Shown here: positions 3,390-20,000 of the stretch, piece by piece
How the letters are laid out: each line of letters opens with the position of its first letter
Position numbering within the stretch: position 1 is the first letter of the stretch
DNA from: an uncultured virus (IMG/VR IMGVR_UViG_3300033141_001977)
Taxonomy: Duplodnaviria > Heunggongvirae > Uroviricota > Caudoviricetes
Length of the DNA stretch: 20,000 nucleotides
IMG/VR virus record: IMGVR_UViG_3300033141_001977
Reading direction: 5' to 3' (one strand)
Translations under genes and position numbers: made by a program
Notes under the pieces: model-generated
The model's input: the letters and a program-made list of their open reading frames with translations, nothing else
Databases searched by the model: none
What the model was told of the DNA's origin: nothing

Positions 3390-3585
3390 TCTTCGGCTCC
3401 TTTGGTGGTGTTGTGATTGGGTTGAATCTCACGCCATACCATTTCTCGCGGGCTATGGTCGCGGCATTAAAGGCCGCAAGACAGCTGATCATGAACTCTG
3501 CCAGAATGTAGTCCGGTGTGTTGGATTCGTTTTCAGTTGATTCGTAGTTGAGAAGAGTTGAAAGTTTGCGTTGTAAATCACTCAT
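3382..3585 (-). CDS. Conserved-looking phage hypothetical protein (ENESNTPDYILAEF motif)
   Basis: SD AAAGGA. Overlaps the next gene. The motif resembles small phage proteins as recalled, not searched. Confidence 0.7.
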   Translation of the reverse strand: MSDLQRKLSTLLNYESTENESNTPDYILAEFMISCLAAFNAATIAREKWYGVRFNPITTPPKEPKND

Positions 3586-3742
3586 CTTGATTATCCTTTT
3601 CTTTATTGGGTCCTCTAAATAGGTTCCCGGATTGTTCGTTCTGTTGTCGTTGTTCTTGTTGATGCTGTGCCTTGTATAGCCGCTTCGCCCGTTTTAGCAG
3701 CGCTTTCTGCTTTGCACATGGTGATTGGGGTTATGTGGCGCA

Positions 3743-16806: not shown

Positions 16807-17090
16807 GAAGCCACCCCCCCCCGCACAATGCAAGACCCCAGCAGCCCGCCTTGCCGTACAATCTCATACGCATCAGCGATAGCACACTCTACGCCCCCGC
16901 CAACATGCGTGAGCGCCGGGCAGGTGTGCTCAATATCTCCCGCGTCGAATGACGCAATCTCAAAACAATACGGAGCCTCAAAGCGAACGATAGCCTCAAC
17001 TGCAACGCCAGCCCGAGGGACACGATGGACCCGCGTCCGACCATCGCCCAATGCCTTGAAATATATCCGACCGTAACCTGTTCTAGCCAT
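16803..17090 (-). CDS. Hypothetical protein
   Basis: Start reassigned to MARTGYG at 17090 (SD GAGGAGG). Confidence 0.65.
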   Translation of the reverse strand: MARTGYGRIYFKALGDGRTRVHRVPRAGVAVEAIVRFEAPYCFEIASFDAGDIEHTCPALTHVGGGVECAIADAYEIVRQGGLLGSCIVRGGVAS

Positions 17091-17325
17091 GATGGGGCTC
17101 CTCCTCTTCACCATAGGGGTTAGTGCCGCGGCAAAAGCACCGCACGCACGCACCACCCATTATACGACGCTTGGCGGCATCAAATACCTCGTCTGCCGCC
17201 TCACGGGTTCCAACACTAGTCTGAACTGCTATCCCATTGCAACTCACTGTAAAATGCTTGATAGCGCCCGTTGACGCCCGTATATGCAATACATTACCCT
17301 GAATAGTCTCCTTACGTGTGATCAT
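17083..17325 (-). CDS. Hypothetical protein with C-terminal CxxCxC
   Basis: SD GAGGGTG. First gene after the promoter at ~17460. Confidence 0.65.
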   Translation of the reverse strand: MITRKETIQGNVLHIRASTGAIKHFTVSCNGIAVQTSVGTREAADEVFDAAKRRIMGGACVRCFCRGTNPYGEEEEPHHG

Positions 17326-17454
17326 GGTGTCTCACCCTCTTAGGCGTGTTGAAAGTGATTGTTAACAGGCTGTCTTACTGCTAGTTACACTGAAAGCGGC
17401 TTGACAGAAGCTAACTCTCACTGTACGTGACGTAGCTATATCGGGGTATCCGCT

Positions 17455-17484
17455 ATTATGAACATCAAATATCGGTAAAGTCAA
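17455..17484 (-). promoter_or_regulatory. Sigma70-type promoter
   Basis: TTGACT-18 bp-CATAAT with an AT-rich upstream tract, in an intergenic region. Confidence 0.6.
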
Positions 17485-17615
17485 GCCCTAATTTCACTGT
17501 ATTTACCATATTTGTATAGTTTTTTGGTTGCAGTGAAAATATCGCAGCCGGGTCATTTGCTTCTCCTCTTCTGGGCGCGCTGCGTGGTGTTACGGCGCGC
17601 CGGTTGTTTGCGCGG

Positions 17616-17858
17616 TTAGTTTTCTGATATGTGGAATTGACCGAGCCGGTTCGATGCGTGGGTTGCTGGGTCGTATTTGTATGCTACATATATGCCGCTA
17701 CAATTTAGGTTGCCGGTTTCTCGTTGACAGAATATACCGCGAGCTGTGCCGTATATTTTGGTGGTGGCGCGTTGCGCGGCGGTTAGATAATCCGGTTGCC
17801 TGACGTTGAATAGTGTGTCCCCTGATGCGTCGTGTCTGGAGATTGTAAATAGCGTCAT
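17616..17858 (-). CDS. Hypothetical early protein
   Basis: SD AGGAGGAGGAG. Confidence 0.75.
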   Translation of the reverse strand: MTLFTISRHDASGDTLFNVRQPDYLTAAQRATTKIYGTARGIFCQRETGNLNCSGIYVAYKYDPATHASNRLGQFHISEN

Positions 17859-17888
17859 CGGGTTGCTCCTCCTCCTGTTGTCGGTCGG

Positions 17889-18149
17889 TTACGGGTAAAC
17901 GTTTGATGGGGAAAATGCTAGGCCAACAATGCCGTGTGCAGCGAAGGCGCGGTCAACGCCTGCTGCACATAGCCGGTCTATGAGCGGCGCTCGGTCAGAA
18001 CGAGCGGCGCGTTTGCAGTAGACGCGGATAATGGCGTGATAACGGGCATTATCTCTGATGACGAGAGCTCCTTTAGTGATCCATGCGGTCTCGTTGTCTG
18101 TAACGTGCAGGATATTCCCGTTGTGTAGCGGGATGTCTATTGTCGTCAT
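17889..18149 (-). CDS. Hypothetical early protein
   Basis: SD AAAGGGA. Confidence 0.7.
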   Translation of the reverse strand: MTTIDIPLHNGNILHVTDNETAWITKGALVIRDNARYHAIIRVYCKRAARSDRAPLIDRLCAAGVDRAFAAHGIVGLAFSPSNVYP

Positions 18150-18218
18150 TTTGCGTGTCCCTTTCCTATATGGTGGGAATTGTCGCCATCGTTGTTCCTC
18201 CGGTCATGTTGTTTCGTG

Positions 18219-18443
18219 TTAATCGTCCTCTGTTGGGGTTAGGTTGCGTATAATGCTTCTGGCTATCCTGTCTGCTCTATAATACTGGCCGTCGGGCACC
18301 CCATAAACCAGCCTATGTCGCACGTCCTCAACGAGGTGCCTGCCCTGGCACGGCACCACGACCCGACCGTCAACCGTGAGGTCATATTTTGATGTCGACT
18401 GCCGCGACATTTGGATGTCTATCCTGTGAATATCAATCGCCAT
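18219..18443 (-). CDS. Hypothetical early protein
   Basis: Start reassigned to MAIDIHRID at 18443 (SD GAGGAG). The longer predicted N-terminus is the ribozyme. Confidence 0.7.
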   Translation of the reverse strand: MAIDIHRIDIQMSRQSTSKYDLTVDGRVVVPCQGRHLVEDVRHRLVYGVPDGQYYRADRIARSIIRNLTPTEDD

Positions 18444-18454
18444 AACGGTCACTC

Positions 18455-18516
18455 CTCTCTGTTTCGGCCCTATCCGGGGCCTCATCGGCACAGGCCAATA
18501 GCCTGCGTACAGAGAA
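18455..18516 (-). ncRNA. Type III hammerhead ribozyme, core variant CCGAUGA
   Basis: TTCTCTG-TA^-CGCAGGC[TATTG]GCCTGTG-CCGATGA-GGCCC[CGGATA]GGGCC-GAAA-CAGAGAG. All three stems pair. Confidence 0.88.
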
Positions 18517-18620
18517 CGGCTGCCCATGCGTTTGTATCGTCTGCCCCGTGTATCAATAGTGAGTGCGTACTCGAGGCCGCATGTGGGGCCCGGTGTCTGT
18601 TCCGGTCCCGTCCGCCGCTT

Positions 18621-18689
18621 CCGTGCCGGGGCAGTGTGGTATCTCCCGACACGGGACTACAGCCGTCGAGGTTCACCACGCCTCGACGG
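18621..18689 (-). ncRNA. Unidentified two-hairpin kissing-loop RNA element
   Basis: CCGTCGAGG/CCTCGACGG (9 bp) and CCGTGTCGGG/CCCGGCACGG (10 bp). The loops contain complementary GTGGTG and TACCAC. Confidence 0.55.
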
Positions 18690-18709
18690 GATCACGATGA
18701 GGGGTTATG

Positions 18710-19141
18710 TTAGACTCCGCCCATCTCCTCCGAGTAGAACCGTAGGTCACTCAGTTGAAATCGTGTAATGCCCGCTGCCAGTAGTAGGCCGACGACCTCC
18801 GCCTCAGTATCGTAGGCGTGTCGGTACATGCTGGCCGGGATACCGCCAACGACGACATATTTACCCTGCCACTCACACGGGTGATCCAGCCGCATAATCC
18901 CGGTCGGCAGGCCGCGCGATAGCATCCTGATGGCGCTCGCCATCTCGCCTACGGGGGCCCGTTCCAGTCGAGGTGCGCGCTTGGGCGCAGGGATGCCAGT
19001 CAAGCGCCGCGCTTGTGCTAGCGAATAATTCTCTCGCCTCTCGTCGGGCATCAGCAGCCGGAATCTGCCGTTGTATGCCCAGTCCCTGGCCCCTCGCATG
19101 GAGGCCAGGGCTTTACCTAGCTCACGGGTTGACTCTCTCAT
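18710..19141 (-). CDS. Hypothetical early protein (possible HTH-like segment YSLAQARRLTGI)
   Basis: Start reassigned to MRESTREL at 19141 (SD AGAGGAG). Confidence 0.7.
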   Translation of the reverse strand: MRESTRELGKALASMRGARDWAYNGRFRLLMPDERRENYSLAQARRLTGIPAPKRAPRLERAPVGEMASAIRMLSRGLPTGIMRLDHPCEWQGKYVVVGGIPASMYRHAYDTEAEVVGLLLAAGITRFQLSDLRFYSEEMGGV

Positions 19142-19174
19142 ACTCTCGCTCTCCTCTTGTTGTATGGTTCTACT

Positions 19175-19284
19175 AGCTATCGTAAAAACACGGTGAAGCC
19201 TCATCGTCACTGGCCCGACGTACCCTGCCGGCCTGCGCGCTGAGCTCGTGGGCTCAACACGTCGCGAGATGTAATATGATAGCT
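19175..19284 (-). ncRNA. Unidentified multi-stem intergenic RNA
   Basis: Closing stem AGCTATC/GATAGCT; inner CATCTCGC/GTGA(C)GATG; hairpins GTGTTGAGC/GCTCAGCGC and GGCCGGC/GTC(G)GGCC. Confidence 0.5.
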
Positions 19285-19298
19285 CCTAGTGCGCCCCA

Positions 19299-19511
19299 TC
19301 ATACGATCCCTCGCTCTATCACAGGCGCGCTGTGCTCGTGTTCAGTTGCCTCATGCTCACACCGTATTGGAACGATCGTGACGCCCGGCCACGCATATTC
19401 GTGACCATGCCGCACACATGCATACTCCACGTGACCGTCATTATCGGTCAACCGATACTCGGACTCACGCTCACACCATGAGCAGGGACGCCTCCTCGTG
19501 ATTCGTGCCAT
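19299..19511 (-). CDS. Small zinc-binding early protein (CSWC...ACVRH)
   Basis: Start at 19511 (SD AGAGGAGG). First gene after the sigma54-type promoter. Confidence 0.7.
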   Translation of the reverse strand: MARITRRRPCSWCERESEYRLTDNDGHVEYACVRHGHEYAWPGVTIVPIRCEHEATEHEHSAPVIERGIV

Positions 19512-19587
19512 AATATGCCTCCTCTTGCACGTGGGCACCTCGCTGCGGCAACCACCGCAATTCCCGCGCCCTCTACACCCTTACATA

Positions 19588-19604
19588 AGCAGGTTCTGTG
19601 CCAA
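19588..19604 (-). promoter_or_regulatory. Sigma54 (-24/-12) promoter
   Basis: TTGGCAC-AGAAC-CTGCT versus consensus YTGGCAC-N5-TTGCW. Exact GG-N10-GC spacing, ~75 bp upstream of the first gene. Confidence 0.75.
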
Positions 19605-19692
19605 ACCCTCACGCTAATTCACCAATACCACTATTCAGCCCCTGCGAGAACGGAGCGGCCACGCCAGCCCAATTCCGATACCAGCCAAAAAC

Positions 19693-19707
19693 GTAACAAG
19701 GTGTGAC
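19693..19707. promoter_or_regulatory. Palindromic binding site, copy 2 (GTAACA-AGG-TGTGAC)
   Basis: Arms match 11/12 positions of the perfect palindrome at 19816-19830. Confidence 0.5.
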
Positions 19708-19814
19708 TCCGCTGAACCCAGAACGCCTACTAAAGCCAAACAGGCGTTGTCCCGAAGTGTCAAGCGCCACCCCCAAATAGCACCTATCGAGGCCACTAAA
19801 GCCAGAACTTGTGG

Positions 19815-19831
19815 TGTCACACAATGTGACA
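19815..19831. promoter_or_regulatory. Palindromic binding site, copy 1 (TGTCACA-CAA-TGTGACA)
   Basis: Perfect 7-bp inverted repeat with a 3-bp spacer in non-coding DNA upstream of the sigma54 promoter. Confidence 0.6.
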
Positions 19832-20000
19832 TCGGCAGATTCACTCAGCACGTGCGCTAGCTCGCCGCTAACCCTCATTTTTCCTCATTATGGTTTTACC
19901 TTATTTACTTTTGTTTTCTTGTGTTAGTTTTGGTTGTTTTATGTTGTTGCTTGGTTTTTGTTGTTTCAGGATTTTGTTGATTTCTTTTGCTGCGATATTT

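Follow-up and report, generated by a model that had tools for sequence, protein, structure and literature searches.

Hammerhead ribozymes of phages and prophages were described by Perreault et al. in 2011 (PMC3088659). These elements and the Rfam family RF00008 (clan CL00010) have in common a three-way junction in which stem III is open, the core letters G5 A6 N7 G8 A9 and G12 A13 A14, the A15.1–U16.1 pair and a cleavage nucleotide other than G. All of these features are shared by the element analysed here, found in a stretch of 20,000 nt of DNA from an uncultured tailed phage (the window) and, like the published phage elements, located between small phage genes. It departs from the RF00008 consensus in carrying C at core position 4 and in its low model score. 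As regards biological role, the function of hammerheads in phages and bacteria is still termed largely elusive in PMC6765202, where the processing of polycistronic RNA is suggested, but not shown, as a role of the bacterial elements.

Position 4 has received particular attention. U4 is treated as strictly conserved in PMC3088659, and the final alignments of that study dropped any match with a mutated core unless its activity had been measured, so C4 elements are absent from the published sets. As U4 is treated as invariant, published searches and Rfam thresholds discard C4 copies. The same source, citing Ambros and Flores 1998, records U4C in a natural viroid hammerhead, where the change "considerably decreases activity in vitro" and in vivo activity remains sufficient for infectivity. 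Apart from this one core change, which is the same as in the window, the natural type III motif of the viroid is intact; it processes the rolling-circle replication intermediates of a plant viroid, whereas the element in the window lies in an mRNA leader of a dsDNA phage. Furthermore, a deep mutational scan of a type III hammerhead indicated low activity for single mutants of the CUGA turn (PMC9901934). No mention of C4 in phage hammerheads was found in the literature searched, in which a U4C hammerhead appears only in PMC3088659. Phage hammerheads (2011) and the viroid U4C are already known, and the element in the window is a further instance of a variant that recurs.

In placement, the nearest published analogue is the HHphage hammerhead of the haloviruses HF1 and HF2, described in PMC3088659 as a variant-core element of an early operon, 13 nt upstream of a start codon within the early genome region, with a transcript 5´ end that maps within 3 nt of the cut site. 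Unlike the present case, the variation of HF1/HF2 is a 2-nt insertion near C3, studied for its salt dependence, and the host is archaeal. The insulators of synthetic biology, such as RiboJ (PMC7536230), also consist of a type III hammerhead directly before the RBS that removes the upstream RNA and leaves a structured 5´ end; faster decay of the uncleaved mRNA has been modelled for RiboJ circuits. Such insulators are synthetic: they use a ribozyme from a plant satellite RNA, whose core follows the consensus, and add a separate hairpin. The likeness is one of function and not of membership.

The hammerhead motif and its genomic setting

The window comprises the final 20 kb of a 67-kb contig in a draft genome of 4.1 Mb. 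On its minus strand, the sequence, RF00008, a sub-family covariance model (R1, described below) and the minimum free energy (MFE) fold all point to a complete type III hammerhead motif, which extends from the stem III 5´ arm to the 3´ arm at 18455..18516. The 5´ arm, UUCUCUGU (18509..18516, including U16.1 at 18509), pairs with 18462–18455; the 8 pairs between U18516–U18509 and A18462–G18455 include A15.1–U16.1 and a terminal G·U. The cleavage triplet is GUA (G18510 U18509 A18508), and the position in the hammerhead alignment places the predicted scissile bond at 18507..18508, between A17 (18508) and C1.1 (18507). Stem I, CGCAGGC/GCCUGUG (18489..18507), is formed in the MFE fold by 7 bp, one of them G·U, that join C18507–C18501 to G18495–G18489 under loop 1, UAUUG (18500–18496). 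The core strand C3 C4 G5 A6 U7 G8 A9 (18482..18488) leads to stem II, GGCCC/GGGCC (18466..18481), whose 5 bp, also recovered in the MFE fold, are closed by loop 2, CGGAUA (18476–18471). The motif is completed at 18455..18465 by G12 A13 A14 (18465–18463) and the stem III 3´ arm ACAGAGAG (18462–18455), as read from the sequence, RF00008 and R1.

Three helices of 7, 5 and 8 pairs thus meet at a single junction; loops cap stems I and II and stem III is left open, the arrangement of type III. The junction contains G12 A13 A14, A15.1–U16.1 (A18462–U18509), an H17 nucleotide (A18508) and G10.1–C11.1 (G18481–C18466). Compared with the strict core C3 U4 G5 A6 N7 G8 A9, six of the seven positions fit and only position 4 fails; in the Rfam alignment, too, the assembled C at 18487 is all that departs from the consensus CUGAUGA. 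Altogether, 12 of the 13 core letters and all 20 stem pairs are intact. From the letters alone, UAUU of loop 1 and GAUA of loop 2 could form three Watson–Crick pairs and one G·U. The original prediction of a type III hammerhead on the coding strand is therefore borne out by the sequence, the RF00008 alignment and the MFE fold; its coordinates, stem lengths and cut site (18508/18507) proved correct when the minus strand was read again, and so did the core CCGAUGA in place of CUGANGA. The only other record of the locus is an IMG/VR contig of the same phage, 100% identical over 3222 nt.

RF00008 aligns end to end with 18515–18456 (model positions 1–54) at 32.6 bits, with E values of 2e-5 over 301 nt, 0.0014 over the window and 6.6e-5 over the 4.1-Mb genome. 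The Rfam check proposed with the original prediction (Hammerhead_3) thus gave a match over the full length that fell short of the gathering cut-off of 48.5 bits, hence the element is not listed at that threshold. The MFE fold is the hammerhead fold itself, at -32.0 kcal/mol compared with -21.95 ± 3.24 for shuffled sequences (z -3.1; 1 of 200 shuffles as stable). A second covariance model, R1, was built from 25 other type III hammerheads of phage and metagenome origin, leaving the window's element out. Over 18516–18455 it gives 55.9 bits, with model positions 1–61 of 61 aligned, all 19 modelled pairs formed and none of them non-standard (E = 1.8e-14 over 41 kb and 1.8e-12 over the genome); since the members of R1 were picked by their shared stem II and core pattern, this score is partly obtained by construction. 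No further hammerheads were found by RF00008 or RF02276 in the 49.9-kb IMG/VR record and the genome, or by R1 in the genome. The segment 18516–18455 is a genuine type III hammerhead motif that carries the natural core variant C4.

The motif sits in a gap of 266 nt between an upstream gene of 166 aa (18710..19210, minus strand), without a PHROG or Pfam family match, and a downstream orphan gene of 74 aa (18219..18443, minus strand, ATG at 18443), equally without a PHROG or Pfam match and with no homologue other than itself in the protein clusters searched. A longer reading frame from an ATG at 18527, which would place the motif within a gene, was rejected because no Shine-Dalgarno (SD) sequence precedes it and 18443 has a well-spaced GAGGAG. 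All the plausible genes of the window lie on the minus strand, with phage replication and recombination functions according to PHROG and Pfam: a DnaB helicase, an HU-like protein, a Holliday-junction resolvase-like protein, a PD-(D/E)XK exonuclease, a Sak4-like ATPase and a DUF669 protein, together with a weak match to a Q-like antiterminator. The IMG/VR contig (49.9 kb, estimated to be 74% complete) extends the locus. The leftward unit begins around 7.7 kb upstream of the hammerhead, where it diverges from the portal, protease and major-head genes; its genes then include an SSB-like one, a methyltransferase and numerous small ones. The hammerhead consequently occupies a mid-operon position in a long leftward replication operon and not the operon head, and the early polycistron of the original prediction did not hold, with the element lying some 7.7 kb into the unit.

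Simple scans revealed no terminator-like site on the minus strand in 17000–20000 and neither promoter-like nor terminator-like sites in the 266-nt gap. Promoter-like sites in 17000–20000 are as numerous as in shuffled sequences (3 vs 2.8 ± 2.1). The best of them, at 17455–17484 on the minus strand (TTGACT, 18 nt, CATAAT; 10/12), is a possible internal promoter located in the 290-nt gap between the genes that end at 17616 and start at 17325. Immediately after the stop codon of the 166-aa gene, two hairpins, CCGUCGAGG...CCUCGACGG and UCCCG...CGGGA, are present at 18644–18690 (minus strand), with no U tract. In L025 (3815–5867, minus strand), a DNA methyltransferase appears to be split into ORFs of 160 and 322 aa that match successive parts of phrog_67, and an ORF for an HNH endonuclease of 204 aa lies between the two halves.

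Relatives of the locus itself were sought in several ways. The 74-aa and 166-aa proteins and the next one, of 86 aa, matched only the same phage in IMG/VR, and the element's own stem I pattern, allowing C or T at position 4, matched only the same IMG/VR contig. Megablast of 17500–19500 against named phages gave zero matches. When the element was compared with named phages by distant blastn, 18 records appeared, all with E = 10; among them, the intergenic match in an Arthrobacter phage proved to be a plain hairpin and no hammerhead. One contig (L003) was dropped as a candidate relative because its match of 13 residues was chance-like. When RF00008 was run over 121 related genomes, the stricter filters lost even the match in the element's own genome, and the one match recorded (25.6 bits) is uninformative.

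The stem II sub-family and core position 4

A census was carried out with a pattern that kept the stem II of this element and the exact letters G5–A9 and G12–C15.2, leaving positions 3 and 4 free; decay at the fixed positions is therefore invisible to the sample. The pattern matched 65 stretches in IMG/VR and at least 120 in a metagenome collection, and a simple parser typed 190 matches (140 flank-distinct) among the matches listed. Distinct type I elements comprise 87 with U4 and 1 with C4, and distinct type III elements 20 with U4 and 6 with C4, again among the matches listed. The 16 flank-distinct matches without stems, in the same set, include 10 with CU, 1 with CA, 2 with GC and 2 with UC at positions 3 and 4, plus L036, whose stem I is bulged and which was typed as type I by one parser and dropped by a second one. 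The five non-CU stemless matches look like chance, and one of the ten with CU (L205) is type III save for a single mismatch in stem I. Twelve extra stretches in genome contigs, read by eye, hold three type III elements, two with U4 and one with C4, from genomes labelled Acidimicrobiaceae, Fraserbacteria and Planctomycetota.

The window's element is a regular member of a phage type III sub-family characterized by stem II GGCCC/GGGCC; the U4 elements L142 and L198 have both its stem II and its loop 2. Across the 26 type III elements among the matches listed, 89.6% of the cells in the paired columns can pair, compared with 66.6 ± 1.4 after shuffling (0 of 500 shuffles reached the observed value); changes on both sides affect 12 of the 19 pairs, and all 6 columns of stem I covary, in a set that had been selected for having stems. 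This pattern of substitution argues that the sub-family structure is under selection. In the same 26 listed members, the longest Watson–Crick match between an element's own loops averages 2.31, against 2.00 ± 0.12 when loops are swapped, a value reached in 0.5% of 2000 permutations. It suggests a weak signal of loop 1–loop 2 pairing at the level of the family, not specific to the window's element.

Standard annotation would miss this sub-family. None of the five related phage loci tried reaches the RF00008 gathering threshold, and three clear phage type III hammerheads (L026, L004 and L015) have no RF00008 match even at E up to 1. In the IMG/VR contig L005, a type III hammerhead at 568–633 (RF00008, 27.7 bits) is followed some 60 nt on by an HDV-like match at 696–773 (RF00094, 39.8 bits, E 0.005, under the gathering value of 50), so that two self-cleaving classes may lie side by side. 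In L015, the stem III 3´ arm of a type III hammerhead (117–178) is the SD GAGGAG itself, and a type II hammerhead (517–587; RF02276, 52 bits, above gathering) is located about 340 nt downstream; the two would bracket one small gene.

Whether C4 occurs in other hammerheads was a question raised by the original prediction, and the census answers it: among the matches listed, C4 is carried by six of the 26 distinct elements of type III, each of the six with full stems. Visual inspection of a genome contig adds a seventh C4 element, L224. In the 114 intact elements listed, position 3 is always C, while position 4 is U in 107 and C in 7, and never A or G. As position 3 is equally open to transitions yet shows none, C4 appears to be tolerated rather than a product of decay. 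Judged by the variable columns, the nearest neighbour is a U4 element for four of the six C4 elements listed; C4 elements are thus interleaved with U4 elements and do not constitute one tight clade. One C4 element, shared by two contigs (L098 and L202), stands unchanged before two different downstream genes. The two metagenome contigs do not differ over the upstream gene, the ribozyme and the SD, beyond which they diverge fully, with the mosaic joint exactly at the ribozyme–SD boundary.

The frequency of C4 in type III (6/26) compared with type I (1/88) gives a Fisher p of 5e-4 among the matches listed, which overstates the excess, relatives being non-independent. A second sample, drawn from IMG/VR with other G/C stem II sequences, provided at least 10 type III elements, and C4 occurs in 0 of 10 among the matches listed, all being U4. 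C4 tolerance may be confined to one sub-family, or the 6/26 may be inflated by kinship. By inspection, no position covaries with C4 at the 1.1–2.1 pair or in either loop, which are the same as in U4 elements. Taken with the published measurements, the recurrence of intact C4 elements suggests that C4 probably lowers the cleavage rate and is still tolerated. A degenerate copy of stem II lies in L026 (genome G122, 3578–3620), around 210 nt past the other C4 hammerhead of that genome and before the SD of the next gene; with its altered core (CGGAUGA, and GUAAG for GAAAC) and 20.8 bits in R1, it resembles a decayed duplicate.

Stem III and the ribosome-binding site

The SD sequence GAGGAG (18452..18457, minus strand) has its first three letters inside stem III. 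GGAG ends 8 nt, and stem III 11 nt, from the ATG at 18443, which confirms that the stem III 3´ arm adjoins the SD of this gene. The further claim that stem III covers the RBS stands for the 5´ part of the purine tract, with three of the six SD letters (18457–18455), a part that a ribosome would require for initiation, and not for the GGAG core, which is mostly accessible already in the precursor. Two additional pairs, G18452–C18519 and U18451–G18520, are predicted on the far side of a 2x2 internal loop. In the thermodynamic models, the unpaired probability of 18460–18456 (AGAGA) is 0–0.09 in the precursors and 0.83–0.94 in the 3´ product that starts at C18507. The corresponding values are 0.10–0.82 and 0.74 for G18455, 0.68–0.92 and 0.76 for G18454, and 0.83–1.0 and 0.87 for A18453. 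Opening of the RBS by cleavage, as originally proposed, would therefore apply to the purine tract (18460–18455); GGAG is already largely open in the uncut RNA, and the gain in translation from unmasking may be small. The stem III duplex to be released, of 8 bp, amounts to only -9.9 kcal/mol, so the 5´ arm should depart quickly. According to these models, stem III would flank the RBS rather than cover it, and a full "RBS masking" is overstated. Hammerhead switches that do mask the RBS have reportedly been described by Ogawa and Maeda and by Wieland and Hartig, both in 2008.

This arrangement recurs in the sub-family. An SD followed by ATG or GTG within 30 nt was found in 20 of 25 type III elements among the matches listed (median distance 14 nt; here, 11 nt) and in 29 of 86 type I elements. 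The SD falls wholly within stem III in a few members (L070 and L189) and directly after it in most. C4 and RBS adjacency are therefore traits of the sub-family and not private to the window's element. A protective hairpin just 5´ of the hammerhead was detected in 6 of 26 type III and 11 of 86 type I elements among the matches listed, and is absent here, so it does not constitute a consistent feature of the family.

Proposed processing of the phage messenger and alternative readings

The reading we favour, with rather better than even confidence, is that of an active ribozyme that processes a polycistronic phage mRNA. The hammerhead would be transcribed together with the replication genes, as part of the same long leftward operon, and the motif would fold in the nascent RNA and cut after A18508. 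Given the type III topology, the ribozyme body (stems I and II) would stay attached to the downstream RNA and form its leader, fully paired and beginning with a 5´-OH. The 8-nt stem III 5´ arm would depart with the upstream RNA, and the purine tract AGAGAGGAG would thereby be freed, 11 nt from the ATG (18443). In this way, the cut would separate the small genes that follow from the message ahead of them, and provide them with a 5´ end that is both defined and structured and with an accessible site for ribosomes to land. A contact between loop 1 and loop 2 might perhaps offset the rate defect caused by C4, with which the weak family-level signal is compatible. Any effects on RNA stability or on translation are what we infer from this arrangement.

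That a GC-rich intergenic hairpin cluster merely happens to fit the hammerhead pattern is very improbable: although the RF00008 score is below the curated threshold and control genomes likewise yield sub-threshold matches at E up to 1, the genome-wide E values (6.6e-5 for RF00008 and 1.8e-12 for the leave-one-out R1), 12 of 13 core letters with three perfect stems, and the usual phage intergenic site before an SD, shared with 20 of 25 relatives among the matches listed, weigh against coincidence. More serious, if still rather unlikely, is a dead or decaying allele, in which C4 abolishes cleavage and leaves a stable three-way junction beside the RBS, at most a static structure that damps translation or protects the RNA, or else inert. 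The strict conservation attributed to U4 and the loss of in vitro activity in the viroid U4C (PMC3088659), together with the low activity of CUGA-turn mutants (PMC9901934), point in this direction, as do the RF00008 score under gathering, the lack among the searches above of relatives that could show purifying selection on this element, and the count of C4 in 0 of 10 listed type III elements with other stem II sequences. The degenerate copy beside the other C4 element of G122 indicates that decay does happen in such loci. Against a dead allele, however, the remaining core positions and the 20 stem pairs are all intact here; among the matches listed, C4 is found in 6 of 26 type III elements with full stems, with C3 invariant and A4 or G4 in 0 of 114; C4 and U4 elements are interleaved; and one C4 element has been retained before two different downstream genes.

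Conditional cleavage, also contained in the original prediction, would make the C4 ribozyme slow, or dependent on a condition such as pH, Mg2+, a protein or a competing ribosome, and the downstream gene would then be translated according to the fraction of RNA that has been cut. A 30S subunit engaged in initiation could compete with stem III for 18462–18455, to judge from the 11-nt distance to the ATG, and the same adjacency is observed in 20 of 25 listed type III elements; the enrichment of C4 in RBS-adjacent type III elements (6/26 vs 1/88 among the matches listed, kin not being independent) goes in the same direction. In a U-turn, C in place of U lacks the N3–H donor unless it is protonated, which offers a possible route to pH dependence. 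Nevertheless, the proposal found no support: the predictions yield neither a ligand-binding fold nor an alternative one, the hammerhead is dominant in every precursor ensemble tested, no position was seen to covary with C4 and the SD core is mostly open before cleavage, all of which makes a switch improbable. A wider version, in which C4 hammerheads are a selected class, slower or condition-dependent and tied to translation starts, with the change from U4 to C tuning cleavage, possibly through protonation of C4, is to be regarded as a similarly long shot. If it were true, the share of cut transcripts would set the output of the downstream phage gene, and the more than sixfold C4 excess (6/26 vs 1/88 among the matches listed) would be a functional signature and not drift.

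The window's element adds little by itself, and it is the census around it that provides two regularities, both unpublished as far as the searches reach. Around a quarter of the intact type III hammerheads in one phage sub-family carry C4, and four in five such type III elements lie directly before an RBS, in both cases among the matches listed. Cleavage by the C4 copies would mean that the accepted core consensus is too strict and that a ribozyme class escapes annotation. Should the location ahead of the RBS prove to matter, the ribozyme insulators of synthetic biology would have natural counterparts in phage hammerheads.
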